A stretch of DNA of 64,000 bases from an uncultured Bacilli bacterium (GTDB taxonomy: Bacteria > Bacillota_I > Bacilli_A > RFN20 > CAG-826): positions 102,359 through 166,358 of the forward strand of contig CALWDE010000004.1 in NCBI GenBank assembly GCA_944376605.1. The letters run 5' to 3'. Under the pieces are notes generated by a model. The model did not search any database, was not told the origin of the DNA, and worked only from the letters and a program-made list of their open reading frames with translations. The position numbers and the translations under genes were made by a program. Of the stretch, positions 1-39,560 are shown piece after piece (position 1 is the first letter of the stretch; every line of letters begins with the position of its first letter).

Positions 1-9
1 GTTCCCACT

Positions 10-726
10 ATGAAAGAACATGTTCATGAAGCTTTCATGCGGAAAAACGGGCTTAAAGTCTTAGCAAACACTGTTCTTGTCATTGTTTATGCTGCCTGTC
101 TTGCTGTCTTGATCTTTGCTGCCTACTCAAGAGCCTCAGGTGAAACATTTGCCTTTGGTAACACAACATGCCTTATTGTAAGAACAGGCAGTATGGAAGA
201 GGCAAACGCAGCGAATTCCTATTTAGAAGAAAACAATTTAACTGATCGCATTGAAACAATGTCTTTGATTGGCATTGATAAGGTGGATTCTATCGCGGAT
301 ATGGAACAATATAAAATTTACGCATTTGAAGGAGATGACCGCGTTTTAGTTCACCGCTTAATCTCCATTAATTTAGAAGGAGAGGAACCCGTTTACACCT
401 TTAGAGGAGATGCAAACTCTGCAAGTTTTGTCGAAGAGATTGATGTTCCCTTCTCCAAAATCATCGGAGAATATAACGGGTTCCAAAATGTTGGGCTTGG
501 CATGTCTGTAGCCTATTTGCAAAGCGATATTGGCATTATTGCTGTTTGCTTCGGTCTTATTCTTGTCGGAGCTTATGACGTTTTTGAAATTGCTCTTGGA
601 AAACGCATCGAAAAGAGAAAAGAAGAAATTTATCCTCTTATTGATAGTGAAACCAAACACCACATTAAAGAATTATCTGAAGTGGAAGGCACAATTGCTG
701 TTGAACAAGAAGAGAAGCAAAACTAA
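10..726 (+). CDS. Signal peptidase I, ER/archaeal (SipW-like) type, with C-terminal TM anchor
   Basis: N-terminal TM, then RTGSMEE (SPase box B with catalytic Ser) and RVLVHRLISI (box D with His, not Lys), indicating a Ser/His ER-type SPase. A C-terminal hydrophobic segment is followed by a charged tail. Confidence 0.6.
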   Translation: MKEHVHEAFMRKNGLKVLANTVLVIVYAACLAVLIFAAYSRASGETFAFGNTTCLIVRTGSMEEANAANSYLEENNLTDRIETMSLIGIDKVDSIADMEQYKIYAFEGDDRVLVHRLISINLEGEEPVYTFRGDANSASFVEEIDVPFSKIIGEYNGFQNVGLGMSVAYLQSDIGIIAVCFGLILVGAYDVFEIALGKRIEKRKEEIYPLIDSETKHHIKELSEVEGTIAVEQEEKQN

Positions 727-740
727 AGAATCACTTTTAC

Positions 741-777
741 AAAAGAAAAGGCCGCTTACGAAGAAGCGACCTTTTTC
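741..777. terminator. Bidirectional rho-independent terminator between convergent genes
   Basis: Hairpin GGCCGCTT-ACGAAG-AAGCGACC flanked by an A-run on the left and a T-run on the right. Confidence 0.5.
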
Positions 778-795
778 CTTATTTGTAGCAGAAAT

Positions 796-1992
796 CTATT
801 CTGCAATAGGACCTCTCATGGTCTTGAAGATGGTGTAAATAACTCTCACCGCAATGACCATCATAAAGATAGTCATAGACATAACATAATTGCTGCCACC
901 AAACATGAAGCCAAGAATCATAGCGATTAAAGCACAAGTGAAAGATTCAAAATAAGCCACTTGTTGAGCGTCCCAGAAATTCAATGGACGATAAGGGTTA
1001 TTCTTGCCTCTTGTCGCTAAGAAAATAATTAAGCCCATTACAAAGATGGTCGCGACAATAATCGCGCTTAAAATGCCTACATTTGTCCATCCTGCTGTCC
1101 ATTTTGTGGAAGCATATCCTTCATCAAAGAAAGTGCCCCACAAACTGCGAGATGCCTGGCGATATTCATAAGAATCTAGAGAAGGAGTTTCACCAGTAAA
1201 GGTAGGAGTAAGTAAATCAGTTAAATACTCCCCTTGATAAGAAGAAGCGTCCCAAGAATAACGGATTGCTGTTGATAAAGAGTTTGTAGAAGAATCTGTA
1301 GAAGTGTTAGGTAAAATAGCAAGAATGTAGCCATCCGAATCTAAGAACAAGGTGGTGACGCTATAGGTTTCTTTGCCGTTAGGATCATCTAAAGTGTCAT
1401 CCTCGACGATTCTTTGATACATCGTAGCGACATTGTCATAAAGACCGGAATAATCATAGAAAACAGCAAAATCAACGATGGTCTCTTCTTCCACAACTGC
1501 ATTCCCATCATTTACGCTAGTATCTAACGCAGAAGAGGAGGCAGAGGAAGAACTGTTATCTTCTTCCGGCGGAAGAGTTACAACATCACGAGTCACTGTG
1601 TGGTAATAGGCACCATTTTGATTGGCCCCATAGGCAGCAGACCAGCTGTCATTTTCATCAAATAGCTCATTGTCTTCGATATGAAGAAGAACATTCTTTT
1701 CCTTCATATCCGTGATAAAGGCAGCAGTAGGAGTGACAAGTCCATAATCGGAATTCGTAATAAAACTCGATGCGTTCATTTGACCCATCGCTACCGAAGT
1801 GGGGATTAAAGCAATAATGATTGCTAAAATCACAACAGGAATGGAACTCCACCAAGGTTTTTCTCTCGCCAAAAGACAAGCGCCGTTGCTATATAACGTC
1901 TTAAACCAGTAACGGAATCCGTACCAGACTCTACCCCAGAAAGCTTTTGCTTTACTAGGTGCTTTATTTTGTTTCTTTTTCTTATTCGCCAT
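796..1992 (-). CDS. Hypothetical membrane protein (1 N-terminal TM, ~230-aa extracytoplasmic Ser/Asp-rich domain, 3 C-terminal TMs)
   Basis: Long ORF. Lys-rich N-terminus, hydrophobic segment, then 3 hydrophobic helices at the C-terminus. No recognisable catalytic motif. Confidence 0.5.
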   Translation of the reverse strand: MANKKKKQNKAPSKAKAFWGRVWYGFRYWFKTLYSNGACLLAREKPWWSSIPVVILAIIIALIPTSVAMGQMNASSFITNSDYGLVTPTAAFITDMKEKNVLLHIEDNELFDENDSWSAAYGANQNGAYYHTVTRDVVTLPPEEDNSSSSASSSALDTSVNDGNAVVEEETIVDFAVFYDYSGLYDNVATMYQRIVEDDTLDDPNGKETYSVTTLFLDSDGYILAILPNTSTDSSTNSLSTAIRYSWDASSYQGEYLTDLLTPTFTGETPSLDSYEYRQASRSLWGTFFDEGYASTKWTAGWTNVGILSAIIVATIFVMGLIIFLATRGKNNPYRPLNFWDAQQVAYFESFTCALIAMILGFMFGGSNYVMSMTIFMMVIAVRVIYTIFKTMRGPIAE

Positions 1993-2168
1993 GTATTTTT
2001 ATCCTTACGCTTCTTATAGAAGCGACTTGCATGCTAAAAGATACGCCAAGAAGAGCATTCTTTCCACTAAAGATACAAGAAAGAAGGAAAAATGATTAAT
2101 TCTTTCTCTATTTAATAGGCTGTAATTTTATAGAAAACCGAAAAATTTATCCCCTTATTTCTTGTTAA

Positions 2169-2198
2169 ACAAAAAAGAGCACCTTATTCAGGTGCCCT
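2169..2198 (-). terminator. Rho-independent terminator downstream of lipoprotein gene
   Basis: On the minus strand: GGGCACCT-GAATA-AGGTGCTC followed by TTTTTTGTTT. Confidence 0.6.
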
Positions 2199-2222
2199 TT
2201 GGTGTAAACATGAAGATTGTTT

Positions 2223-4550
2223 TTATATTCCAAACTGGCTACGATCAAGGATACGGATATCCAGCATGGAATCGCTATTGAAGGTGAGCCTCACAGCAAA
2301 AGGTAATCCTTCTTTGACATAATAGGTATAGCTTCCTCTCACTACTACTTCATAACCGCTTTCTAAAAGATAAGCTTTGTAGTCTTCTGCGTATTTCTCA
2401 AACACATCTGAACCAATAAGAGAGTAGTTGTTGCTAATTATAAATTCAATATAGCCAGCGTTCCCAACAAACCAGTAGTCATCAAGAGTAGCGTTATACA
2501 AATAAGGAACCTCACTTGCATACTCCCCAATAAAGCTCTCTTCCGCAAGTTGGGCGTGGATGGAAGGATGTGCTTCTTCCCATGTGGTTGGAGCAACAAA
2601 AGCATCCTCAATGCCTGAGAAGTCAATGGATTCAGGAAGAGCGACACCATAAGAAATCGTCGCTACATCTTCTGAAGTAATTTCGTTTTCATATTGATAA
2701 GAAGTGATTGTGCTTGTTTCACTATCAAAAGTAAAAGTAAGGGTAGGTTCTAAAATAAAGTCTCCGTTTGGCCCAAGAGGGAACACTTCATCAAGTCCTC
2801 TGACAAAGGTGTTTGCCTTTAAGGATGTATCACTCATAAACACAAAAGCTTGAGGAGCAATATTTTGAATTCCGATATAGTCATCAATCGATTCATATTC
2901 CCCACTAGCAGAATCAGTCGTACGGGCAATCATATCTTCCCCAACAGTGAAGGGCGCTACTCCGCCTTCTTGGAAGACATATCCAGAATAACTATGAATA
3001 TAGTCATAAGTGCCACCAGCAGCAGTATTCATATGTACATTGTCCACAAGCAAGATATTGTCTTTCACCGTGTAAGTTGTGGTTAAAACAGAGTTACTCA
3101 CGTTATGCGTAACAATTTGATAACCATTAGCAGAATCAAACTTTGCTAAAGCATTACTTATACGGACATCAGCCTCTTCTTCATGAACCGTTACCTCTTC
3201 AATCGCAACTGGCTCTTTAAAGGTAACATCAAACTCATAGTGGAATGTGTTATCCCCAATGATGGTAGACCAAGAAGTTGCGTGGATATTGGTCACTTCT
3301 CCTTCCGCATTTGTGTTAGCTTCTAAATCAATAATCACACCCATGCCGTCATAATATTGAGAGAATTTCTCCACAAGCTCATTGGCTTTATAGCCAAAAT
3401 AACGATAGGTGTCTTCATCCACTTTACGGAAAGCGGAAAGTTCTATTAATGAAGAGACAGAAGGCGCAACATCATCATACATAGATCCAGTAGGAACCTC
3501 TGCTAAAGTGTTCGCACTAGAAATAAATTGTTCCAGCGCCTCTCCTTCGCTTCCCTTCTTTAAATAAGTTGTTTCATCCACGCCATAAGCATGAGTAATA
3601 ACTCTTGCCCTGTTATTTTGATAATCGAAAGTATTCTCTTTATTTACATAAGTTACTTCTGCTTGACCGTTTAAATAACGGGTGAGAGAAACTTCATAAG
3701 TAACAACGTCTGCATTTAAATAAGAAAGGTTCTCACTTGTTAGAGCAGTTTCTGGTAAAGCAAAAGAGGCAACAAAGTCTTCCACCTCTTTCAGTGAAGA
3801 GGTTCCGACATTCCTAATCACACCTGTTGTTGCAGAAATCATTTCTGAAATAGAACCATCAGAATCGGTGTAATTCGGCGCAAAACCAATATGAATTTCT
3901 TCATTTTCAATTGGATTAATAAATATGCGAAGAATGTTGCTCACATAATTGCCCAAATTAAACATAGAGGCAAAAACTTGAATAACGTTTTGATCTTCAA
4001 TCACAAAATAGCCGCTTTGATGAATCAAATCTTCTGCAGTAAAGGCAACATCTTCCCTATCTAACAAAGAAAGATAACTTAACTCACTTGTGGAGTAATA
4101 AGGATGCGTGACCCCGTCTTCTTCGTAAGATAAAGCATTAAGAACAACATAACTTCCATTTTGTTTTTCAACAGAATATAGAAGTGTCTCTCCTTCTTTT
4201 TCATAGCTAGGTAAGGCAACAGAAGCAGTCGCACCAGAAGCGTCTGCAATATAGGTTGAAGTGAGAATTCTTCCTCCTGTAACAGTCCCGTCCTCGCTTA
4301 AAAATCCATACGTATAGTTTGTGGACGTTTTGGCTTCATTCAGAAGATTCATAATCTTCGTACGTTCTGCCTCAACATCAATAGAGGGTCCAGGAGGCAA
4401 GGTAGAAGAGGAAGAAGAACCTCCAGAAGAGGTGTTAGAACTACTAGAACTCTCGCTAGAGTTAGAAGTGCTGCTCGAAGAGGTAGTGCCTCCACAAGAA
4501 CTTAAAATAAGCAGGGAGGCTGCCGCGATAAGTAGAAGTTGCTTTTTCAT
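2223..4550 (-). CDS. Large surface lipoprotein (775 aa) with Ser-rich linker
   Basis: MKKQLLLIAAASLLILSSCGG signal peptide with lipobox, then a poly-Ser/Thr low-complexity linker and a large unknown domain. The ORF-track start (4640) is a spurious extension; the start is placed at the ATG at 4550. Confidence 0.7.
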   Translation of the reverse strand: MKKQLLLIAAASLLILSSCGGTTSSSSTSNSSESSSSSNTSSGGSSSSSTLPPGPSIDVEAERTKIMNLLNEAKTSTNYTYGFLSEDGTVTGGRILTSTYIADASGATASVALPSYEKEGETLLYSVEKQNGSYVVLNALSYEEDGVTHPYYSTSELSYLSLLDREDVAFTAEDLIHQSGYFVIEDQNVIQVFASMFNLGNYVSNILRIFINPIENEEIHIGFAPNYTDSDGSISEMISATTGVIRNVGTSSLKEVEDFVASFALPETALTSENLSYLNADVVTYEVSLTRYLNGQAEVTYVNKENTFDYQNNRARVITHAYGVDETTYLKKGSEGEALEQFISSANTLAEVPTGSMYDDVAPSVSSLIELSAFRKVDEDTYRYFGYKANELVEKFSQYYDGMGVIIDLEANTNAEGEVTNIHATSWSTIIGDNTFHYEFDVTFKEPVAIEEVTVHEEEADVRISNALAKFDSANGYQIVTHNVSNSVLTTTYTVKDNILLVDNVHMNTAAGGTYDYIHSYSGYVFQEGGVAPFTVGEDMIARTTDSASGEYESIDDYIGIQNIAPQAFVFMSDTSLKANTFVRGLDEVFPLGPNGDFILEPTLTFTFDSETSTITSYQYENEITSEDVATISYGVALPESIDFSGIEDAFVAPTTWEEAHPSIHAQLAEESFIGEYASEVPYLYNATLDDYWFVGNAGYIEFIISNNYSLIGSDVFEKYAEDYKAYLLESGYEVVVRGSYTYYVKEGLPFAVRLTFNSDSMLDIRILDRSQFGI

Positions 4551-4623
4551 GTTCACTAAATATTCCCTTCGGCTCAAAATCATTATGGAAATATCGAGAA
4601 AGTCAAGGAAAGAAGAAAACTCT

Positions 4624-5685
4624 TTACTGTCTATTAACAATCCTTAAAGGTAAGGCATTTTCAACTGCTTCCTCTTTTTTAAGAAACACGCGAACAAAAG
4701 AAAGCTGCTTTTTAAATGATCTCGCATTCTTCTCAATGGAGTCATAGGCGCGAACTTCATACCCCTTTTCATGGAAAAATTTCGCCATAGAAAGTGCGTC
4801 TTCTCGAATGATACAAGCCTCTTCTCCAACACCAAGCAGCGTAATAGGAGAAGGCGCTTTTTCTAGAAGAGAAGAATAGTAAGAGAGGAAAAATTGAAGA
4901 TTTTCTTCCCTTTCTGCAGGGTATTTATCTCCTTCTAGCCACTGCAAAGCAAAAATGCCTTCTTCACCGCGTGGAAAAAGACAAAAATCGAGGCCGATAC
5001 GCGACATAAAGGGGGTATAACCAATATTCTTTGCAACAATATCTCCGTTAAAGTCATCTCTTTTTCCTATTTTTCGAATATGAAGCGCGAACTCATTTTT
5101 CTTGCAGTAATAAGCTTCTGCACTTAAACGGTACGCTTCTGCCTCTTTATAAGGCAAAGAAATGACGTTTACTCCTTTTTGGAGCAAGGGACGCGTTATT
5201 TTTTCTAAAAATTCATCATAAAGAACATCTAATTTGCCTGCTAAAAAGATAGAAGGATCTTCTTCCTCTAAAACCTCAAATCCTGCACGAGAAAAGGAAG
5301 GGATGTAATAGAAGGAAGAATGTCTCTCTTTCCATCTTTTGGCAATCTCATCACTTGTGCCCGGAAGAAGCAATCCGCGGAAAATGACAATTTTATTTTC
5401 TGCGAGATATGAAAAGTATTCTTCTCGCCAAAAAGGACTGCAAAAAATAAGAACATCCGCTTCTTTCATAGCAAAAGAAGCATCATTAAGAAAGATAGTG
5501 CCTTTTCTTCTTGTTTCCTTTTCTAGTAAAGGGTCATAACCTTTTAAAAACTGTGCTTTTGCACATCTTTCATGTTCTTCCCTAGATAAAAAGTATAGAA
5601 AGCGTTCTTTTGCCTTGAGGATCTTTCTTGCAAAGGCAAGAGATCTTAGAAGGTATTTTTCTTCTCCAATCAGTAACGCTTTCAT
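4624..5685 (-). CDS. Divergent UDP-glucose/GDP-mannose dehydrogenase-family-like protein (Rossmann GxGxxG motif not conserved)
   Basis: IPSFSRAG resembles UDPGDH NPEFLREG. PSIFLAG, AEAYRLSAEAY and SRIGLDFCLFPRGEEG resemble the UDPGDH central-domain motifs RIG..G.GGxCFPKD. N-terminal MKALLIGEEKYLL lacks the glycines. Pattern-level similarity only. Confidence 0.35.
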   Translation of the reverse strand: MKALLIGEEKYLLRSLAFARKILKAKERFLYFLSREEHERCAKAQFLKGYDPLLEKETRRKGTIFLNDASFAMKEADVLIFCSPFWREEYFSYLAENKIVIFRGLLLPGTSDEIAKRWKERHSSFYYIPSFSRAGFEVLEEEDPSIFLAGKLDVLYDEFLEKITRPLLQKGVNVISLPYKEAEAYRLSAEAYYCKKNEFALHIRKIGKRDDFNGDIVAKNIGYTPFMSRIGLDFCLFPRGEEGIFALQWLEGDKYPAEREENLQFFLSYYSSLLEKAPSPITLLGVGEEACIIREDALSMAKFFHEKGYEVRAYDSIEKNARSFKKQLSFVRVFLKKEEAVENALPLRIVNRQ

Positions 5686-6024
5686 TTAATCTCCATAATC
5701 GCTTCCGCGACTTTTATCTTCGACAAAAATATTTAAAGGATCGGTAATATCGGTAATCTCACGGTAAATATATCCTTCCATTTCTAAGAAGGGAGTTTCG
5801 TAATTAGCTGTAAACACGACTTTATGATTTTCTTTAATCTCTTCGTCCATCTTCTTTAAGATTCTTGGAAAATCCTCGCGTTTTTTCTCTTTCATACTTT
5901 CTAAAGCATAAAGAAAACCTGGTTCCACATAGAAACGATTCCCGAGATTATCTTCGTAGCAAAGAACAAGAGGATGAAGGGGGTCATGAATTAGTTGATA
6001 TTGATTTAAGTCCTGGCATTCCAT
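5686..6024 (-). CDS. Hypothetical protein (112 aa), abuts the UDPGDH-like gene (its stop lies directly upstream of that gene's start)
   Basis: ORF end is adjacent to the downstream gene start. A TACAAT -10-like element lies 9 nt upstream of the ATG (likely leaderless). No motif recognised. Confidence 0.45.
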   Translation of the reverse strand: MECQDLNQYQLIHDPLHPLVLCYEDNLGNRFYVEPGFLYALESMKEKKREDFPRILKKMDEEIKENHKVVFTANYETPFLEMEGYIYREITDITDPLNIFVEDKSRGSDYGD

Positions 6025-6064
6025 AACATGATTGTAACGCGTGGTATCATTTTAAGCACAGACT

Positions 6065-6862
6065 ATGATTAAATACTTATTTACAGACATTGATGGAACT
6101 CTGTTCTCACACACAAAGCACAAGGTACCTGAATCCGCTTTAAAGGCAATTCAAGCGGTGAAAAAGAAAGGTATCCGTGTTTTCTTATCAAGCGGGAGAA
6201 ATTTTTATTTAATCCGCAAAACAGGAATTTTAGATATTGTCCATCCAGATGGTCTCGTCATGATGAATGGTGCAGCAGTAGCGATTGGTGATACCCTTAT
6301 TTATAAATACCCCATTCCTAGAGATGTTGTAGATGCGATGATCATGTTCTCTTATCGCTTAAAATTTGGTCTCACCTTAATTGAAGAAAAAGAAGGACAT
6401 ATTAATTTTATTGATGATCGTGTCATTGATGCGCACGCTAAATACGGCACACGCTTTCCTCAACCAAGAAAATTTCCTATCCCTTACGACAGAACGGTTT
6501 ATCAAATGATTGCTTTCTGCGACTCTTTTGATGAAGCTTTATTTCTTCCTCACCTTCATAACTGCAAAGCCGCCAGGTGGGATGAGTTTGCTGTAGATAT
6601 CATGCCTAAAGATAGCGACAAAGCGAAAGGAATTGCTGCCGCCTTAGAATGTCTTAATGGAAGTAAAGAAGAAGCCTTATCTATTGGAGATGGCACTAAC
6701 GATAAGGAAATGCTCCAATACACAGGAACTTCTGTAGCAATGGGGAATGCTTCGGAAGAGATTAAAAAAATAGCAACTTTTATTACAGATGATATTGATG
6801 AAGATGGCTGGGCAAAAGCTTTAATCCATTTTGGCTTAATTGAAGAAAAAGACGTTTTCTAA
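6065..6862 (+). CDS. Cof-type HAD-IIB family hydrolase/phosphatase
   Basis: FTDIDGTL motif I at the N-terminus, and GDGTNDKEML ... SVAMGNASEEIK motifs typical of Cof/YidA phosphatases. Confidence 0.8.
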   Translation: MIKYLFTDIDGTLFSHTKHKVPESALKAIQAVKKKGIRVFLSSGRNFYLIRKTGILDIVHPDGLVMMNGAAVAIGDTLIYKYPIPRDVVDAMIMFSYRLKFGLTLIEEKEGHINFIDDRVIDAHAKYGTRFPQPRKFPIPYDRTVYQMIAFCDSFDEALFLPHLHNCKAARWDEFAVDIMPKDSDKAKGIAAALECLNGSKEEALSIGDGTNDKEMLQYTGTSVAMGNASEEIKKIATFITDDIDEDGWAKALIHFGLIEEKDVF

Positions 6863-28091: not shown

Positions 28092-28135
28092 ATCAACTCC
28101 GAGAAAAGTGTAACAAATTTAAGAAAAAATGAAAA

Positions 28136-28222
28136 TAAAAAACCACCGCGCAGAGCGAGTGACCTTAAGGCTGCTTGGTTCCCCACCTGACCTGGTTCGA
28201 TCATCTTCTCTCGCGATGGCTT
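28136..28222 (-). ncRNA. ffs: Signal recognition particle RNA (small bacterial 4.5S/scRNA type)
   Basis: Minus strand reads CCAGGUCAGGUGGGGAACCAAGCAGCC, matching the conserved SRP domain IV (E. coli CCAGGUCAGGUCCGGAAGGAAGCAGCC). 5' and 3' ends pair. TGcTATAAT extended -10 lies just upstream and a U-tract downstream. Position between tadA and serS, as in Bacillus (scr). Confidence 0.8.
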
Positions 28223-28238
28223 TTGTATTATAGCAATT

Positions 28239-29522
28239 TTATTTTTTAGGAAGGATTCTTTCTTTTCCACCCATAAACGGACGTAACACCTCTGGAATAA
28301 GAACGGAGCCATCTTCTTGCTGGCACTGCTCTAATAAAGCAGGGAATACCCGGGATGTAGCAAGCCCGGAGCCATTTAGTGTGTGGCAATAGTGGACTTT
28401 CCCGTCTTTATCTTTATAACGGACCATTCCTCTTCTTGCTTGATAATCTCTTGCATTAGAAACACTACTAACCTCTTTATAGATACCCATAGAAGGAATC
28501 CACACTTCGATATCATAAGTTCTAGCCATAGAATGGCTGCAGTCACCTGCTGCAAGTTTATCTAAGCGGTAGGTAAGACCTAATCCTTGTAAAAGGCGTT
28601 CCGCCTTTTCTACCATTTCTGCAAACGCAATGTCGCTCTTGTCGTCTTCTGTATACTGAACCATCTCGACCTTATTAAATTGATAGCCGCGAATCATTCC
28701 TCTCTCTTCTGTTCGGTAGCTGCCTGCTTCTTTTCGGTAACACGGGGTGTACGCAAAATATTTTTTAGGAAGTTCATCAAGAGAAAGGATTTCGTTTCTA
28801 TGAAGATTTACTAAAGCAGTTTCTGCAGTAGGAAGTAAAAACTTCTTTGGTTCCACTCCCTCTAAATAAAACACTTCATCACGGAATTTTGGAAATTGTC
28901 CTGAAGTATAGCCAGATTCCACATTTAATAAATGAGGTGGTAAAACAAACTGATAACCATCTTTTAAATGAGAAGAAATGAAGTAGTTGAGAAGCGCCCA
29001 TTCAAGTTCTGCACCTTCTCCTACATATATCCAAGTTCCCGAACCAGAAATTTTTGCTGCTCTTTTATAGTCAATAATGCCAAGAGACTCTGCTAAAGCA
29101 ACATGGTCTTTTGCTTGAAAAGAGAATTGAGGCTTTTCTCCCCATTCTTTAATGGGGTGGTTATTTTCTTTTCCTCCACCGACTAAATCATCGTCAGGTA
29201 AATTCGGAAGTACTTCAATTCTTGCTTGAATCTCGTTTTCTACTGTTTTTAATTCTTCCTCTTTTGCTTTGTTATTTGCTGCTAATTCACGAACTTTAGC
29301 AAAAATAGGAGCAGGATCTTTGCCTTCTTTTTTAAAAGAAGGAACGGAAGAGGTAAGACGATTTTGTTCTGCTTTATTACTTTCTACCTCTTTCCGTAAA
29401 CTTCTTCTTCTCTGGAATAAAGAAAGAAGAGGTTCTGGGTCAAAATCCCATAACTTCTTTTTTAACGCTTCTTTCACGTATTCTGGTTTTTCTTCAATTA
29501 ATTTTGGGTCGATCATAATCAT
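28239..29522 (-). CDS. serS: Seryl-tRNA synthetase
   Basis: Class II aaRS motifs (TPCYRKEAGSYRTEERGMIRGYQFNKVE), N-terminal coiled coil. Confidence 0.9.
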   Translation of the reverse strand: MIMIDPKLIEEKPEYVKEALKKKLWDFDPEPLLSLFQRRRSLRKEVESNKAEQNRLTSSVPSFKKEGKDPAPIFAKVRELAANNKAKEEELKTVENEIQARIEVLPNLPDDDLVGGGKENNHPIKEWGEKPQFSFQAKDHVALAESLGIIDYKRAAKISGSGTWIYVGEGAELEWALLNYFISSHLKDGYQFVLPPHLLNVESGYTSGQFPKFRDEVFYLEGVEPKKFLLPTAETALVNLHRNEILSLDELPKKYFAYTPCYRKEAGSYRTEERGMIRGYQFNKVEMVQYTEDDKSDIAFAEMVEKAERLLQGLGLTYRLDKLAAGDCSHSMARTYDIEVWIPSMGIYKEVSSVSNARDYQARRGMVRYKDKDGKVHYCHTLNGSGLATSRVFPALLEQCQQEDGSVLIPEVLRPFMGGKERILPKK

Positions 29523-30535
29523 TCCCTCTCTAATATTTTTTCATATCGAGTAACAACTTTTTTGCCAAGATGTAAGAGAGATTCTTCTCTTGCGCGACGA
29601 TAAGCCCGCTCGATATAAGAATCATAACCCTTACTAGCCCTTCCGTGCATAGCTTCTATAAGGCTTTTTTCTTCTTCAAAAACAAAACAGTCGTTTCCTT
29701 TTCGAAGATAGGATCCTGCGGGTAAATTACCATAGACGAAAATAGGAGTTTTGGAGGCCATTGCTTCTAATGCAGCGATAGGATTAGGCTCTCCTAAAAA
29801 GAGTAAAAAACTTGCGTCTTTTAAAGCGCTACGATAAACATCATCAGGCCATACCCCTTCGTAAGAAATATTACCTGGGCCTTTCTTAACAAGACGCTTT
29901 CTTAAACTAAAAAGGCGCCGCTTTTCATAACTTATCACCAAAAAGCGATATTCTCTTGCTTCATTTGCAAAAGAGGAGATTAGTTTCAATTCTTTATTAT
30001 CTCTGCAATTCGCAAAGATAATTGCGGTTTTTTCGTTTTCGCGGATATTAAAATATTGACGAAACACATCTTTTTCTAACTGATCTAACCCTTCAAAACG
30101 CGAAACATTTACTCCCGGAGAAAGGATCTCAATTTTGTCTGCATTTTGTCCGGAATCAATTAAAATTCCTTTTGCTCTAGCACTTGGAACAAAGATGAAA
30201 TCAGCACTCTTTAAAAGATGAACCGCTTTATTTTTTAAAGACTGGTAGCCGTCTTCCTCTTTTTCTAATAAGTAGGAAGCGGGAAGATCTTCTTCTGTAT
30301 ATAAGGCGCTGACTACCACTTTCGCGCCAGCCTCTTTCGCTTTTAGAGCAAAAGAGTCATCTTCTGGTGAGATAAGATGAACAATAGAAGGGCTTGCGTC
30401 TAAAGAATCAACAAGCTGCTCTCCTTGGCTTTCTAAAGCACCTTTTAAGTTTTTCCTAAGGCGGGAGGCGAGATAACTAGGCTCCCCCCTCCCTTCTAGA
30501 TAACGAACACAGATTTTCAATTTATTCCACCTCAT
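29519..30535 (-). CDS. GT4-family (group 1) glycosyltransferase, possible glycolipid synthase
   Basis: C-terminal EAMASKTPIF (GT4 E-x7-E region) and Rossmann GT-B halves. Start placed at the internal Met, since the longer ORF would overlap gyrA by 56 nt. 4-nt overlap with serS. Confidence 0.6.
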   Translation of the reverse strand: MRWNKLKICVRYLEGRGEPSYLASRLRKNLKGALESQGEQLVDSLDASPSIVHLISPEDDSFALKAKEAGAKVVVSALYTEEDLPASYLLEKEEDGYQSLKNKAVHLLKSADFIFVPSARAKGILIDSGQNADKIEILSPGVNVSRFEGLDQLEKDVFRQYFNIRENEKTAIIFANCRDNKELKLISSFANEAREYRFLVISYEKRRLFSLRKRLVKKGPGNISYEGVWPDDVYRSALKDASFLLFLGEPNPIAALEAMASKTPIFVYGNLPAGSYLRKGNDCFVFEEEKSLIEAMHGRASKGYDSYIERAYRRAREESLLHLGKKVVTRYEKILERE

Positions 30536-33161
30536 CTGGAGTTGGATTATGAGGTGCCTCTTCGCTTTCTGGTGCAACTAAGGAAGGGTTTATCTCTTCA
30601 TCCGTCGCTTCTTCCTCTTCTAGTTCGTTTTCATCAACATGAGGAAGAATTGTTAAAGAAGCAACCTTTTGTCTTCCTTCAAGGCGAATAATTTTTACTC
30701 CTTGTGTGTTTCTACCAGCAATTTTCACTTGGCTAAGAGGAGTACGAATTACAATACCTTGTGTTGTAATGACCATTAAATCCTCATCGCCGTGCACTGC
30801 GCGCATTGCGGTTAACTCACCGTTCTTCTCGCCCATTTTGAGCGATAAAACACCTTTCGCGCCACGGGAAGTAAGACGATATCCGTCATAATGCCTTGTA
30901 GAGCCATCTTCTTCTGTGATGGTCGTCTCTTTTGCGTAGCTAATCTTTCCGTATCCTTTATCTGTTAAAACAAGAATCTTATCCCCTTCTTCTGAAGTGG
31001 TGATATCTACCGCAATCTCGTCATCTTCTAAAGCAATACCTCTTACACCTGCTGCGCTTCTACCCATATCACGGACATCGTTTTCATAGAAGCTACAAAC
31101 TCTACCAGAAGAAGAAGCAAGAGAAATAATAGCGTTCCCGCTTGTGCGTTTTACATCGAGTAAGGCATCTCCTTCTTTTAAAGTTAAAGCACGTTTACCG
31201 CTGACATTAATGCGTTCAAACTCTTTTAAGGCAGTACGTTTTACTGTGCCTTTTACGGTTGCAAAGAAGAGATAATCTGTTTCAGGATAGTCGTCACAGG
31301 CAACAATAGAAACGATTTTTTCTTCTTGTTCTAACTTTAATAAGTTAATGACTGGAAGACCTTTCGCGTCGCGGTTTCCTTCTGGGATCATGTATCCTCT
31401 CATTCGATACACTTTCCCGTAAGAAGAGAAGAAGAGAAGGTCAGTGTGTGTTTTGGTGTACACCATAATGTTCACCATGTCACCGGCAGTTGTTTTAATG
31501 CCCGTTACTCCTCTTCCACCACGATTTTGTGTACGGAAAGTATCATCATCCATTCGTTTGATATATCCGTTTTTTGTTAAAACAACAACGATATCTTTTT
31601 CTGGAATCAAAGACTCTGAATCGATATCTGCAGCGTCATTTGAAATTTCAGTTAAACGCTTGTCACCATACTTTCTCTTGATTTCACTTAATTCATCAAC
31701 CAAGACAGCAACAATGTTTTCTTTGCTCGATAAAATCCGTTCATATTCGGCAATAGCAGCGCTTAAAGCAGCTTTTTCTTCGTGGAGTTTTCCTTGCTCT
31801 AAGCCTTGTAATCTTCTAAGTGTCATCGATAAGATAGCTTGGCATTGATCGTTAGTTAAGCCAAAGCGTTCTTCGAGTTTTCTTGTAGATTCTTCATCGC
31901 TGCTAGAACTGCGGATAATTGCAATCACCTCATCAATTTCGTCATGAGCAAGAATTAATCCATCAACAATATGTGCTCTTTTTGAATCGCGGTTTAAGCG
32001 GTAGTTGGTTCTTCTTGTAATGACCTCAATTTGGAAATCGATGTAATTTTGCAGAAGCTCTTTCATTCCTAGTGTCTTTGGTTCGCCATTTACAAGACAC
32101 AAATTGATGACGCCAAAATTCACTTGTAACTGAGTGTGTTTAAGAAGATTATTCATCACCACTTCAGGAATGAAACCATGCTTAATTTCAATTACAACGC
32201 GAATACCTTTTTTGTTAGATTCATCGCGTAAATCAGAAATGCCGTCTACTACCTTATCACGGACGAGTTTGGCAATTTCTTCCACCATGGAAGATTTATT
32301 CACTTGATAAGGAATCTCTTCCACAATAATGCGGGAACGATTTCCATTTTCTTCCACCTGATAACGAGAACGGATAGAGAAGGTACCGATACCTGTTTCA
32401 AAATAGTCACGGATGCCTTTTCTTCCTAGCAATACACCGCCTGTTGGAAAATCTGGACCAGGAAGATATTGCTGCATAATTTCTAGAGGGGTAAGTTCAG
32501 GATTTGTCGCTAAAGCAATGAGTGCGTCCACTGTCTCTGATAAGTTATGAGGAGGCATGTTGGTTGCCATACCTACAGCAATACCCTGTGTGCCGTTGAC
32601 AATTAAATTTGGGAAACGAGATGGAAGAACAACTGGTTCTTTTTCACTTCCATCATAGTTATCCATCCAGTCAACAGTGTTCTCATCTAAATCACGAACC
32701 ATTTCTACCGCTAAACGAGACATTCTCGCTTCGGTGTAACGCATAGCAGCAGCTTCATCTCCGTCGATAGAGCCAAAGTTTCCGTGTCCATCCACTAAGG
32801 GGTAACGTAAAGAGAAACTTTGAGCCATACGGACTAAGGTTAAATAAAGAGCAGAGTCGCCGTGAGGATGGAAACGCCCCATAACATCACCAACCACCTT
32901 GGCACTTTTGCGGTAAGGCTTACCAGGAAGCATTCCTGTATTTTCCATACCGTAGATAACTCTACGCTGAACTGGTTTTAAGCCGTCTCGAACATCTGGA
33001 ATAGCCCGGGAGGTGATAACAGACATGGAGTAGGCTAAAAAGGCAGAACGAACCTCGTCAATAATCTCTCGGTCGCTTAAACCAGTATCAATACCTGCTT
33101 TTGGTAAATTTTCTTCACTAGAAGGCTCTAGTCCTTCTTCTTTCTTGTCTTCGTTTTCCAT
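30522..33161 (-). CDS. gyrA: DNA gyrase subunit A
   Basis: [16 protein letters not shown] and active-site AAMRYTE region; 879 aa with acidic C-terminal tail. Confidence 0.95.
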
Positions 33162-33174
33162 GAATGAGGCCTCC

Positions 33175-35232
<2,058 letters not shown>

Positions 35233-36270
35233 TTATTTCATAACAATCTCGTGAGATTGATAAATATGTTCTTCTGTGCCAGTAATGAAACACTGGCCGA
35301 GTTTTGGTAATAAGCGAACAAGGTTTTTTGCGTGTTCTTTATCTAATTCCCCGAATACATCATCTAAGATGGCGACAGGTTTTTTGTCCCCCTCTTCCAA
35401 GAAGGAAGGAGAGATTTTAAGGGCGAGAGATAAAATCCTTCCCTCTCCTTGTGATGCAAAATTAGCAGCATTTTCTCTTTCTAAACTGACTTCAAAGTCC
35501 TCCCGGTGAATTCCGTTTTGTGTACTTCCAAGAAGGTAATCTCTTTCCTTGCTTTTTTGATAGAAATCTCTAGCTTCTTGCACAAAGTTTTCTTCTTTCA
35601 GAAATGGGTGATAAACAAATTCCACTTTCCTTTCTTCTCCAAGCAAGAACTGTGAAGTTTTTTGAAAGACGGGAATGAGACGCTTTAAGAATAAATTTCT
35701 TTCCTTAACAAGCGGTTCTTCGCTCAAGATTAACTGTTCTGTTAAGGTTTCAAGAAGCGCATCATCTCGTCTCTCTTTTAAGGCGGCATTTCTTTCTTGA
35801 AGAATATGACGGAACTGCCTTAAGTTATGAAGATAGGCCGGAGAAGTGCGGGAGAGAGTTTCATCAAGAAACAGCCTCCTTACTCCAGGCGAGTCACGAA
35901 AGAAGAGAGAATCTTCTGGCGTGAAAAGAACACAATTGAAGAGACCAGATAATTGCGAGAGTTTTGCAAGAGGCTTTCCGTTTACTAAAGCAACTCTTCC
36001 TTCTTTTTGTAAGACTACTTCAATTTTTCTTTGAAGCGATCCTTCTTCCACTTCTCCACCCACATAAGCTTCATTTTTATCTTTTTGGATGAGCTTTTTA
36101 TTTTCTGCTGTTCGCCAACTTCTTGCTAAGCATAGCAAGTGTATCGCTTCCACCAGATTTGTTTTCCCTGTCCCGTTTCGCCCTACGATTTCATTAATAG
36201 AGGGTGAGAAGAGATAGTTTTTGTGAGTGTGATTACGGAACTGACGCAAGGTCAAGTTCTTTAGGATCAT
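35233..36270 (-). CDS. recF: DNA replication/repair protein RecF
   Basis: Walker A GRNGTGKTNLVEAI and SMC-like signature. Start set at MILKNLTLRQFRNH, the typical RecF N-terminus. Confidence 0.9.
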   Translation of the reverse strand: MILKNLTLRQFRNHTHKNYLFSPSINEIVGRNGTGKTNLVEAIHLLCLARSWRTAENKKLIQKDKNEAYVGGEVEEGSLQRKIEVVLQKEGRVALVNGKPLAKLSQLSGLFNCVLFTPEDSLFFRDSPGVRRLFLDETLSRTSPAYLHNLRQFRHILQERNAALKERRDDALLETLTEQLILSEEPLVKERNLFLKRLIPVFQKTSQFLLGEERKVEFVYHPFLKEENFVQEARDFYQKSKERDYLLGSTQNGIHREDFEVSLERENAANFASQGEGRILSLALKISPSFLEEGDKKPVAILDDVFGELDKEHAKNLVRLLPKLGQCFITGTEEHIYQSHEIVMK

Positions 36271-36500
36271 TCGTCTATCCTCTCTTTGAGAAGTAAAACG
36301 CAATCAGGAAGAGTAATTTCATCACCAGGATGAAGTTTTCTCCCTCTTCTTTCTTCCTTATCACCGTTTACAAGAACTTGGTGAGTAGCAAGAAAGAGTT
36401 TTGCCTCTCCCCCTTCACTAATTACATCAGCAAACTTTAATAGCTGCCCTAATGTAATTTCTGGGGTGTGAATTTCAACAATTTCTCTTTTTCTCTCCAC
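36267..36500 (-). CDS. yaaA: S4-domain RNA-binding protein YaaA
   Basis: Small S4 domain (ITLGQLLKFADVISEGGEAKLFLATHQVLVNGDKEERRGRKLHPGDEI). Conserved dnaN-yaaA-recF order. Confidence 0.75.
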   Translation of the reverse strand: MERKREIVEIHTPEITLGQLLKFADVISEGGEAKLFLATHQVLVNGDKEERRGRKLHPGDEITLPDCVLLLKERIDE

Positions 36501-36507
36501 GCGATTA

Positions 36508-36528
36508 TTTTACTACGTAGTAGTAAAA
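36508..36528. promoter_or_regulatory. Palindrome TTTTACTAC-GTA-GTAGTAAAA in yaaA/recF upstream region (candidate operator)
   Basis: 9-bp perfect inverted repeat with a 3-nt spacer, immediately upstream of the yaaA start. Confidence 0.3.
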
Positions 36529-36542
36529 AAGACTAGCAAAAG

Positions 36543-36567
36543 AAAAAAGGCGTTTCTTACGCCTTTT
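36543..36567 (-). terminator. Rho-independent terminator downstream of dnaN
   Basis: GGCGT-TTCTT-ACGCC stem flanked by A/T runs. Confidence 0.6.
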
Positions 36568-36587
36568 AGAATGCTTTAAGAGAGGTT

Positions 36588-37721
36588 TTATCTTGTCCTC
36601 ATTGGGGTAATAAGTTCTACAATCGCTTCATCATCTGGATTGCGAACAATAAAAGGCTTCATTTCACCTGCAAAAGAAATCGTAATAGATTCAGAACCTA
36701 GAGCCCTAATGGCAGCAATAACAAAGTCCGCATTAAAGGCAATACTTAAAGGTTCTCCGTTAAACTCAAAAGTCTCAATACTTTCTTTTGCAGAACCGTT
36801 TGTATCCGAAGAAGAAGAAACAACAACGGATTCTTCCTCCATCGTAAGACGCACCACCCTTGTCTTTTCGTTTGCTGTCATTGCGGAAACGCGCTCAATC
36901 GCCGCAATTAGTTGACGTGAAGAAACGTCTAAATAGCGGGTAAAGCTCTTCGGGATAACAGAATCACTAAAAGGATAGTTACCGGAAATAAGGCGCGTTG
37001 CTGCAACTGTGTTTCCGAAAGAGAATACTGCGCGGTCTTCTGTTGCAGACAAACTAACCTCACTCACTCCATCAAACATCTTCACAATTTCTTTTAAGGC
37101 ATCAGCAGGAACATTAGCGTTTAGCATGAGTTCCTCATCACAAGGAATAGATTTTCTAGAGACTCTTGCTCCATCGGTTGCAATAGCAATTAATTGCCCG
37201 TTTACTGCTTTTAAATTGACTGCACGCAAAACGTCAGTAACAAGTCTCATAGCAGAAGCTGCCGCAAAGGCTGTTTCGTCAACAAGTTCGGTAAGATGTG
37301 GAGCGGGAAGGGTGAAAGAATTCCCTGCAGGCTCTAAGTCAATATCGGGGTATTCTTCCGCATCTTGGCAATTGGTGAGTTTGAATTCACTTTTGCCCGC
37401 AATAAGGCGCGCATAAGTACCATCAATTACTTCAAAGGTAATTTCATCAGAATCAAGCTTATGAACGACATCATTCAAGAAACGTGCATTCGCTAAAATA
37501 GCCCCTTCTGTTGTGTCACGGAGCACTTCTTCACCGTTCATTTCAAAAGGAATGTAGGTCCAAATAGAAATATTTCCATTGCTAGAAGTTATTTCTAAGC
37601 CTTTTGAAGTTACTTCTAATCGGTAATTCAAAAGTAAGGCATTTGTGGCAGCATTAGGGATTGCTCTAGAAGCCATGCTAAGTGCTTTTGTGAATTGCTC
37701 TCTTTTGATTGTGAATCGCAT
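36588..37721 (-). CDS. dnaN: DNA polymerase III beta sliding clamp
   Basis: MRFTIKREQFTKAL start and 3-domain clamp length (377 aa). Conserved position after dnaA. Confidence 0.95.
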   Translation of the reverse strand: MRFTIKREQFTKALSMASRAIPNAATNALLLNYRLEVTSKGLEITSSNGNISIWTYIPFEMNGEEVLRDTTEGAILANARFLNDVVHKLDSDEITFEVIDGTYARLIAGKSEFKLTNCQDAEEYPDIDLEPAGNSFTLPAPHLTELVDETAFAAASAMRLVTDVLRAVNLKAVNGQLIAIATDGARVSRKSIPCDEELMLNANVPADALKEIVKMFDGVSEVSLSATEDRAVFSFGNTVAATRLISGNYPFSDSVIPKSFTRYLDVSSRQLIAAIERVSAMTANEKTRVVRLTMEEESVVVSSSSDTNGSAKESIETFEFNGEPLSIAFNADFVIAAIRALGSESITISFAGEMKPFIVRNPDDEAIVELITPMRTR

Positions 37722-37868
37722 AGCTATCCTCCTGTTTTTATTCTTTTATATTTTATTCTTATTTAATAGTAATAATAAGAGTGAGACGAATTGTGGATAA
37801 GTTAGTGGATAACTCCTTTTCCTTAACATTTTAATCTTTTTCAAAAAATACCTTTTTATTAGATATCG
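37722..37868. other. oriC part 2 (dnaA-dnaN intergenic): DnaA boxes plus AT-rich putative DNA-unwinding element
   Basis: TGTGGATAA (perfect, ~37792-37800) and AGTGGATAA (~37804-37812) follow a very AT-rich tract (TTTATATTTTATTCTTATTTAATAGTAATAATAAG). Confidence 0.7.
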
Positions 37869-39224
37869 TCAGCCTTTTAACTTTGTTTCCAAACGTTTCA
37901 CGACCTTGCGTAAGTCAGGGTCATCTTTCAACGATTTTTCCACTTTTTCTACACCATTTATCACAGTTGTGTGATCGCGTCCTCCGAAAGCGGCACCGAT
38001 TTTAGCAAAAGGGGCATCAAGTAAAGAACGACACATATACATAGCAATATGTCTTGCTAAGGCAATTTGCGCGGTGCGGATTTTCCCTGTTAATTGAGAT
38101 GAGGTAAGTCCGTACATCGAGGCAACAGTAGAAATTACTTTCTCGATAGAAAGAGTTTCTAAATCGTCGCGGACATCTGCTAAAGGATTTACTGCAGCGA
38201 TTGCGGTTTTTAAATCAATGTGTTTAGTTGGGAATAAATTGACCGCATGGAACAAAAGCCTTGCAAAAGCCCCCTCTAATTCACGAATATTCTTGCCAAA
38301 CTTCTCGGCAAAATAAGAAATAACCTCAGGGTCAAAGTTATTGATATCAAGGTTGTTCGCTTCAATTTTTAATTTAAGAATGGTTTCACAAACTTCTTTT
38401 TCTGGTGCTGAAATGGAAACGGGCAAGCCAGCAACAAAACGTGTTTTTAAACGGTCGCTAAGTCCGTCTATTTTGTAGGGGTGCTGATCGCTTGTTAAAA
38501 CGATTTGTTTTCCGCTTCCCTGGAATGCGTTGAAAATAGCAAAGAAGGTTTCTTCCGTGCTTGGCTTTTTTGCAAAAAACTGGATATCATCGACTAAAAG
38601 AACATCTACTTCCTGCTTAAACCAATCTACGAAAGATTGTGTTTTTTCTCCTCGTAAATAACGTGTATATTCCTCAACAAAGTCGTGACTTGTAATGTAC
38701 AAAGCGTTTAAATCAGGGCGTTTTTCTCTGATTGCATTTCCTATTGCTTGTAACAAATGTGTTTTTCCAAGGCCTGAATTACCGTAAATAAGAACTGGGT
38801 TGTATAGCTCACCAGGACGTTCAGAGGCAACAATTGCTGCTCCATATGCTTCACGATTACTAGCGCCAGCAACAAAATTTTTGAAAGTATAAGCAGAGTT
38901 CAAACGCGAAAAAGCAAAATACTCGCAATTTAAGGATTTTTTATCAGATTTTGTGGCCTCAACTGGTGTAATGTATTGAACGACGAAGTCACTTTCTGTC
39001 ACTTCTTGAAGGGCTTGATTGGCTAAATCAAGAAAGGTAGAGGATGAGAGAGTTTTCGCGGCAACTTCAGTGCCTGCTACAACATAAACTACCTTACCTT
39101 CAATATGATCAATATGAGTGTCTTGAAAGAAAGGTTCAAAATAAATTGGGTCAGACATTCTTTCTTTAATGAGAGCTAAGGTTCTGCTCCAAGTGTCTGC
39201 GATGGTGGCGGCAACATTTTCCAT
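37869..39224 (-). CDS. dnaA: Chromosomal replication initiator DnaA
   Basis: AAA+ Walker A GNSGLGKTHLL, Walker B LLVDDIQF, C-terminal DnaA box-binding domain (TTVINGVEKV). Start set at MENVAATIADTW; the longer ORF-track start would read through DnaA boxes. Confidence 0.95.
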   Translation of the reverse strand: MENVAATIADTWSRTLALIKERMSDPIYFEPFFQDTHIDHIEGKVVYVVAGTEVAAKTLSSSTFLDLANQALQEVTESDFVVQYITPVEATKSDKKSLNCEYFAFSRLNSAYTFKNFVAGASNREAYGAAIVASERPGELYNPVLIYGNSGLGKTHLLQAIGNAIREKRPDLNALYITSHDFVEEYTRYLRGEKTQSFVDWFKQEVDVLLVDDIQFFAKKPSTEETFFAIFNAFQGSGKQIVLTSDQHPYKIDGLSDRLKTRFVAGLPVSISAPEKEVCETILKLKIEANNLDINNFDPEVISYFAEKFGKNIRELEGAFARLLFHAVNLFPTKHIDLKTAIAAVNPLADVRDDLETLSIEKVISTVASMYGLTSSQLTGKIRTAQIALARHIAMYMCRSLLDAPFAKIGAAFGGRDHTTVINGVEKVEKSLKDDPDLRKVVKRLETKLKG

Positions 39225-39560
39225 AACGGCCTTGAGTGTATCACGCAGGGGCGCGTTAGGCGATACAATCCGTGGATAACTTACACTTATCCACACAATG
39301 TAAAGAAAAAAGATGCGATTTTATCGTAAAAAGAAACATTTCAACAAAATATAACTGTGGATAAGTAGGTCTTTACAAAACTGTGGATAACTTTTTGGTG
39401 GAAAACTAGTGGTTTTGGCACATTATCCCCAAAGTAGCACCCTAATTTTTCCTGCGTGAAACCAAATGTTTTAAGTTTTTTCCACCGAATTGTGGAAAAT
39501 GAATCCACCTTACTGTGGAAAAGTGGAAAACTTCTCTTTTAGAGAAAAGAAAAAAAGAAA
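39225..39560. other. oriC part 1 (dnaA-rpmH intergenic): DnaA-box cluster
   Basis: Perfect boxes TTATCCACA (~39287-95) and TGTGGATAA (~39356-64, ~39382-90). 1-mismatch boxes at ~39272-80, 39424-32, 39491-99, 39514-22. AT-rich tract at 39301-39355. Confidence 0.8.

Follow-up and report, generated by a model that had tools for sequence, protein, structure and literature searches.

The opening interval of a 64,000-nt stretch of DNA from an uncultured Firmicute (contig CALWDE010000004.1, positions 102,359 to 166,358; the whole stretch is referred to as the window) carries genes for a signal peptidase of the endoplasmic reticulum (ER)/SipW type, a membrane protein of 398 amino acids (aa), a 775-aa lipoprotein, a 353-aa relative of UDP-sugar dehydrogenases and a 112-aa protein. 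An original prediction, made from the letters of the window, had tentatively joined these five genes into a single surface or glycoconjugate module. However, the cluster of peptidase and cargo genes and the 112-aa/dehydrogenase genes were found to occur apart in relatives, and we read the interval as a junction of four functionally independent units, namely the tail of a peptidase operon, the lipoprotein, the pair of 112-aa and 353-aa proteins, and the 398-aa membrane protein. We put the probability of this reading at roughly 0.6. The features of the interval, in window coordinates, are as follows.

1..726, plus strand: 3′ 241 codons of the ER/SipW-type signal peptidase gene, with the reading frame open at the window edge
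746..775, both strands: bidirectional G+C-rich terminator hairpin with T-runs flanking on both strands, between the convergent peptidase and membrane-protein genes
796..1992, minus strand: 398-aa membrane protein, called as an open reading frame (ORF)
2174..2200, minus strand: intrinsic terminator directly 3′ of the lipoprotein gene (11-bp stem plus T-run)
2223..4550, minus strand: 775-aa lipoprotein, with signal peptide and lipobox LSSC
4624..5685, minus strand: 353-aa degenerate orthologue of the UDP-glucose/GDP-mannose dehydrogenase family, identified by synteny, profiles and motif loss
5686..6024, minus strand: 112-aa cytoplasmic protein, called as an ORF
6065..6862, plus strand: Cof-type HAD-IIB phosphatase, divergent from the 112-aa gene across a 40-nt spacer and identified by Pfam and NCBIfam scans

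All five predicted ORFs were recovered at their positions, although the peptidase ORF and the supposed minus-strand operon required correction. Within the window the peptidase ORF runs from 10 to 726 on the plus strand (238 aa), and window bases 1-9 (GTTCCCACT, encoding VPT) extend its reading frame, showing that the gene is cut by the window start. Contig L001, which equals the window over 9,422 nt with 0 mismatches, continues the sequence upstream and revealed a full peptidase of 329 aa. Its gene begins 273 nt before the first base of the window, where the start overlaps the stop codon of an upstream 766-aa gene; the first 88 codons thus lie upstream of the window. On the minus strand, the four genes that had been predicted to form one operon are real, but a strong terminator (2200..2174) and a 231-nt gap between the lipoprotein gene and the 398-aa gene indicate that they are not transcribed as one uninterrupted operon. 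The lipoprotein gene would share a transcript with its two upstream genes, and the 398-aa gene, a conserved neighbour of the 112-aa gene, would be transcribed on its own. A Pfam scan of all five proteins yielded no significant family.

The independence of these units was examined with the 112-aa protein as a probe, which provided 31 metagenomic loci and two further contigs. No gene of the neighbourhood is more constant than the 112-aa gene, which adjoins rlmH and the Cof-type HAD gene in 33 loci, the latter being its conserved neighbour in most relatives. The common arrangement consists of rlmH, a leftward Cof-type HAD gene, a rightward 112-aa gene followed by a dehydrogenase gene (412-437 aa), and then a gene of the 398-aa family on the opposite strand. 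In L019, the 112-aa gene is present without the dehydrogenase gene and without the membrane-protein gene. A tblastn search with the peptidase and its cargo found nothing in the 31 loci carrying the 112-aa gene, and no homologue of the peptidase, the cargo or the lipoprotein was present within 8 kb in any of the loci of the probe set. Conversely, hidden Markov models of the 398-aa, 775-aa, 353-aa and 112-aa proteins gave no match in the distant peptidase loci L006, L007 and L008.

All units were found adjacent only in three species of one narrow clade (represented by the window and L001, by L003 and L005, and by L009 and L010). These species are collinear over the flanking housekeeping genes tldD/pmbA, gdpP, rplI, dnaB, yycJ and rlmH as well, so that the adjacency of the units carries no specific functional signal. 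Synteny in relatives, which the original prediction had proposed as a check on its module, therefore gave the module no support.

The 353-aa protein had been predicted to be a pseudo-dehydrogenase related to UDP-glucose dehydrogenase and lacking the GxGxxG motif of NAD binding. As a single sequence it yielded weak matches to NDP-sugar dehydrogenase models (TIGR03026, 2e-4; PF03720, 0.04), below the Pfam and NCBIfam cut-offs. A word-indexed search retrieved only two relatives, and an exhaustive HMMER profile search of 1.84 billion representative proteins retrieved 3 close members and 13 weak matches (E 1.6e-11 to 7e-4). Nine of these weak matches were scanned against Pfam and all nine proved to be UDPG_MGDP_dh proteins, which bears out the predicted relationship. 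The family profile gave no match among PDB sequences, and a metagenome-assembled genome named "uncultured Firmicutes bacterium" is the sole species representative in which the family occurs. Compared with UDP-glucose 6-dehydrogenase and GDP-mannose dehydrogenase (PF03721, PF00984, PF03720), the window protein is homologous over the N-terminal domain, the central domain and part of the C-terminal domain, but lacks about the last 70 residues or more of the UDP-binding domain. It is orthologous by position to the intact members that adjoin the 112-aa gene.

Such intact orthologues, with the motifs GLGYVGL, PEFLxEG, AELxKYASNxFL and GYGGSCFPKD all present, occupy the same position in 13 of the 15 tabulated metagenomic loci and measure 412-437 aa, whereas the window protein ends ~60-80 residues earlier. 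In the window protein and its two close relatives, the GxGxxG loop (GLGYVG in intact orthologues) is replaced by GEEKYL (window), GKGPNF and GGGTLL, the catalytic Lys by R, M and R, the catalytic Asn by E, L and E, and GGSCFPKD by LDFCLFPRG (window), NKYVLFPYG and LSLAPFPRG, leaving two relatives without the Cys. Moreover, PEFxxEG reads PSFSRAG in the window protein, and the AELxKYASNxFL region is replaced by AEAYRLSAEAYY. Similar decay was observed in P0068, P0073 and L031/L032, and at least six loci lack the dehydrogenase gene. When 112-aa proteins were arranged on a neighbour-joining tree, the decayed and deleted states were scattered among intact lineages (L011-L043), which suggests repeated independent loss, on a tree drawn from a short protein. 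The 353-aa protein would thus descend from a functional UDP-sugar 6-dehydrogenase, still present at this position in most related lineages, and would have lost the NAD-binding loop, the catalytic Cys, Lys, Asn, Asp and Glu residues and about 70 residues or more at its end. Judged from these losses, it is predicted to be unable to oxidise a UDP-sugar.

This degeneration might in turn indicate that the gene is a functionless relic nearing deletion, kept intact only through its position between the 112-aa and lipoprotein genes in one transcript. Its orthologue has repeatedly decayed or been deleted in related lineages, all catalytic motifs and the C-terminus have gone, and the protein is only 40% identical between species, compared with 52-85% for neighbouring proteins. 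However, three species retain an uninterrupted ORF of 352-358 aa, in which over 100 positions are invariant and patches peculiar to the family are conserved (RSLAFARK, FPxGEEG, ENLQFF and VRAYD). A comparison with a 97%-identical strain revealed 17 synonymous and 12 non-synonymous changes, corresponding to a ratio of non-synonymous to synonymous substitution rates (dN/dS) of 0.19; the housekeeping neighbours have values of 0-0.05. In addition, the 353-aa start codon directly follows the stop codon of the 112-aa gene (TAAATG) and is preceded by GGAG, pointing to translational coupling. We regard a functionless relic as the less likely reading and consider the 353-aa protein best described, as far as its sequence tells, as a pseudoenzyme that is catalytically dead and remains subject to purifying selection. 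Because of this selection, a non-catalytic role has most likely been kept, perhaps exerted together with the 112-aa protein. A literature search for a UDP-glucose dehydrogenase pseudoenzyme found nothing relevant.

The 112-aa protein itself has an invariant C-terminus (SRGSDYGD) and gave no match to Pfam, NCBIfam or PDB sequences. The spacer to the divergently transcribed HAD gene is 40 nt long (6025..6064) and contains a TACAAT hexamer, the end of which lies 6 nt ahead of the 112-aa ATG, so that the 112-aa mRNA may be leaderless.

At the other end of the interval, the predicted ER/SipW-type identity of the peptidase was borne out. The protein matches the NCBIfam SipW model NF046067 over model positions 2-176 of 189 (E 1.8e-13), with a score of 50.5 bits that lies below the curated cut-off of 190 bits, and it matches TIGR02228 (1.4e-6) with 28.3 bits, again below the cut-off (51.85). 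The Pfam S24/S26 models gave no match. With the full-length peptidase, 54 homologue clusters were found in a collection of 5.8 billion proteins, none of which carries a precomputed Pfam domain or a name, and family members sourced from NCBI are likewise unnamed. An alignment of 27 diverse homologues (29-72% identity) showed S152, M153, H206, R207, G224, D225 and N227 to be invariant; in this full-length numbering the presumed catalytic residues are S152, H206 and D225, with codons at window positions 190..192 (Ser), 352..354 (His) and 409..411 (Asp). Box D carries His instead of Lys (H-R, with H206 as the invariant residue).

The single peptidase sequence gave no match among PDB sequences, and the family profile was required to reach human SEC11C (E 2.5e-6) and SEC11A (6e-5). 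In the alignment with SEC11A and SEC11C, the HR box corresponds to the IVHRV motif and the GDxN box to the KGDNN motif; the segment that pairs the GSME box with SGSMEP of SEC11C is weaker and separately non-significant. Since the Ser, His and Asp boxes are invariant and align with SEC11, we classify the protein, by its sequence, as a divergent long-form ER/SipW-type Ser-His(-Asp) signal peptidase. Like SipW of Bacillus subtilis and Sec11, the catalytic subunit of the signal peptidase complex in eukaryotes (MEROPS S26B), it has GSME, HR and GDxN boxes with invariant Ser, His and Asp, and a catalytic domain between N-terminal and C-terminal membrane segments, the latter at residues 265-283. It differs from them in scoring far below curated cut-offs without a Pfam match, in an insertion of ~14 aa between the Ser and His boxes, and in an N-terminal extension of ~105 aa, found in all 27 aligned homologues, that adds a membrane segment (residues 18-36) and a charged loop before the usual anchor (residues 108-126). 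Some long SipW-like homologues (P0012, P0050 and others, 506-549 aa) have a further C-terminal domain of ~200 aa that SipW and Sec11 do not share. This domain is conserved between distant members and would follow the last membrane segment.

The genes upstream of the peptidase, on contig L001, suggest what it may cleave. Here the operon encodes secreted proteins of ~218 aa, ~205 aa and ~766 aa, followed by the 329-aa peptidase as the last gene, and the same four-gene operon was found in L003, L005 and L009. In the distant relatives L006, L007 and L008, of which the peptidases are 32-44% identical to that of the window, the peptidase gene always lies among genes for 2-5 paralogous proteins of 200-260 aa and one protein of 770-870 aa. 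The secreted proteins of all seven loci share an unusual signal-peptide end. Thirteen of the 14 small proteins have G[ST][GA]F[SG]x[WF]x[FY] at residues ~20-30, behind a basic n-region and a hydrophobic core; the exception is the 205-aa small protein of L003 (with a looser GVGYASGWYF). The large proteins have looser forms of the motif such as GGAAFFY. For the three proteins of the window operon, the region reads as a hydrophobic core, VG[ST]GFSA, the cut and W-x-F (VGSGFSA↓W.F, in which the arrow marks the predicted cut). The peptidase most likely cleaves these unusual signal peptides of its three upstream-encoded proteins, and it looks dedicated to specific cargo, as originally predicted. The cargo, however, is encoded in its own upstream operon, outside the window. 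SipW-cognate-type signals, which the original prediction had suggested looking for in the lipoprotein or other nearby proteins, are absent from the lipoprotein and the 398-aa protein but present in the three proteins upstream of the peptidase. The 64-kb window held no further protein with the cargo motif.

This organisation resembles known systems in which an ER-type peptidase serves matrix proteins. TasA is cut at VGGGTWA↓AFND, a site that is processed poorly by ordinary LepB and cleaved by the ER-type SipW, which TasA requires (PMC10269814), and the sipW-bsaA-bsaB-bsaC operon of C. perfringens encodes two small matrix proteins and one large protein (PMC11580942). As in these operons, the ER-type peptidase of the window is encoded together with one large secreted protein and at least two of only ~200 aa, and the cleavage region of its cargo has small residues followed by aromatics just after the cut. 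The differences are that the peptidase gene is last in the window clade, and not first or in the middle as in the tapA-sipW-tasA operon of B. subtilis and the bsa operon, that the ~770-aa protein has no recognisable domain, including no vWA domain, and that the cargo shows no sequence match to the TasA/camelysin family (PF12389) or to the curated NCBIfam models of SipW cargo. The cargo gave no match among PDB sequences either; its predicted fold is a generic beta-sandwich, with which TasA was not retrieved from the PDB. A literature search for SipW in Erysipelotrichia or Mollicutes found nothing relevant.

Residues 28-49 of the cargo, corresponding to the predicted mature N-terminus, are conserved (ITGxIxVTP) yet unpacked in the monomer model (pLDDT <50), which is compatible with a donor strand and proves nothing. 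By analogy with the matrix systems, the released beta-sandwich proteins probably assemble outside the cell into a matrix or fibre, to which the large ~766-aa protein would contribute as an accessory or adhesive component. A more specific proposal, which we offer as a tentative possibility, is a new fibre- or pilus-like system in which the long-form peptidase would release beta-sandwich subunits unrelated to TasA that polymerise via their conserved N-terminal strand, and in which the ~770-aa protein would serve as tip, anchor or adhesin; in the same proposal, and separately, the dead dehydrogenase may have acquired a new non-catalytic role with the 112-aa protein.

Archaeal housekeeping signal peptidases are ER-type enzymes. 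The peptidase of the window might be the general, and possibly only, type I signal peptidase of its host, and its position beside genes for secreted proteins incidental or only partly meaningful. In line with this, no LepB-type gene was found in the 64-kb window with a B. subtilis SipS sequence as query, and the lineage is one of uncultured gut and rumen Firmicutes with possibly reduced genomes. However, that search covered only 64 kb of the genome, and in seven of seven independent loci (L001, L003, L005, L006, L007, L008 and L009) the peptidase gene forms part of an operon whose secreted proteins have one peculiar signal-peptide end in common, as is the case for dedicated SipW enzymes. The 33 loci with the 112-aa gene are neutral in this respect. 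We consider a general role of the peptidase unlikely, and prefer the dedicated enzyme with its own upstream cargo.

The 775-aa protein was confirmed as a Ser-rich lipoprotein with a lipobox and a Ser/Thr stretch. Its ORF spans 2223..4640 on the minus strand at full extent (805 aa). An ATG at 4550 with a ribosome-binding site (GAAGGGA) yields 775 aa, and the alternative ATG at 4583, chosen by gene callers, has no ribosome-binding site. The N-terminus reads MKKQLLLIAAASLLILSSC, followed by GG and ~30 residues of Ser/Thr, and the homologue in L003 has the lipobox LLLLTAC. In NCBIfam the N-terminus matches, weakly, only the signal-peptide parts of lipoprotein models, and no family match was obtained with Pfam, NCBIfam or PDB sequences. 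Homologues are confined to the clade of the window and range from 342 aa (L009) to 777 aa. Because of its lipobox, the lipoprotein is predicted to be processed by signal peptidase II and not by a type I enzyme, so that the proposed service of the peptidase to the lipoprotein finds no support; the 398-aa protein, for its part, has no cleavable signal of the cargo type. The 775-aa protein would be an ordinary Lgt/LspA substrate, acquired only in the window clade. In a Pfam scan that covered part of the window ORFs of at least 150 aa, no lgt or lspA gene was detected. Near the peptidase-cargo loci of the distant relatives, one or two genes for Ser/Thr-rich lipoproteins were observed (L006 4236..6899, L007 14497..16227 and L008 18816..20801). 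None of these is homologous to the window lipoprotein. Their presence could be fortuitous, in genomes that are rich in lipoproteins, or they could be loosely associated with the loci in function.

The 398-aa protein has a polybasic N-terminus. Its first transmembrane (TM) segment spans residues 51-69 and is separated by an outside loop of ~235 aa, part of which is Ser-rich, from three further TM segments towards the C-terminus. Its family has a strictly conserved TRGK(N/T/R)NP(Y/F)R just after the second membrane segment. Genes of this family lie near the 112-aa gene in many relatives (L011-L042), mostly convergent on the opposite strand, and in the window clade the gene is inverted onto the strand of the 112-aa gene. 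Neither the 398-aa protein nor six further diverse homologues matched Pfam, NCBIfam or PDB sequences. An FtsX-like topology with four TM segments was considered and is supported by no model. A metagenome scan with sequence patterns of the 398-aa protein retrieved no relatives in a collection that was scanned successfully with the 112-aa protein.

Some of the observations above weigh against the reading of the interval as a junction of independent units with a dedicated peptidase and a selected pseudoenzyme. The adjacency of both operons has been kept in the three species of the clade and could reflect a functional link, the peptidase may have a housekeeping role given that only 64 kb were checked for a LepB-type enzyme, the cargo proteins lack a TasA/camelysin or SipW-cargo match, and the dN/dS of the 353-aa gene rests on 29 substitutions. 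That all genes form one surface or glycoconjugate module after all, with a peptidase dedicated to the lipoprotein and the membrane protein and a pseudo-dehydrogenase modifying them, is nevertheless highly improbable: all three species-level relatives with the 353-aa family have the two gene sets side by side in convergent orientation and the Ser-rich linkers could be glycosylation sites, but the lipobox assigns the lipoprotein to signal peptidase II, the 398-aa protein offers no cargo-type signal to cleave, the peptidase-cargo cluster of L006-L008 lacks the other genes, the 112-aa and 398-aa genes (with or without the dehydrogenase gene) occur in 33 loci without the peptidase, the collinear housekeeping flanks of the three species make their synteny unspecific, and the dehydrogenase homologue is devoid of any catalytic residue.

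The window derives from the chromosome and covers the region of the replication origin (28130..39296), with dnaA (37869..39296, minus strand), dnaN, recF, gyrB, gyrA, serS and a small SRP RNA (28130..28227, minus strand). Further on, the window carries yidC, mnmE, tatD, rnmV, ksgA, ispE, glmU, mfd, tilS and ftsH.

The interval illustrates that adjacency in one genome is a poor basis for calling functional modules, as the four units brought together here are of different evolutionary depth. The series of intact, decayed, truncated and deleted dehydrogenases at one position provides a clean natural example of the origin of a pseudoenzyme, and supplies matched active and inactive orthologues. In addition, uncultured gut and rumen Firmicutes carry an unannotated family of ER-type peptidases (at least 54 clusters, without a Pfam match) that travels with a family of likewise unannotated secreted proteins. 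If it is true that this cargo forms fibres, it would represent a new matrix or adhesion system in abundant uncultured gut bacteria.

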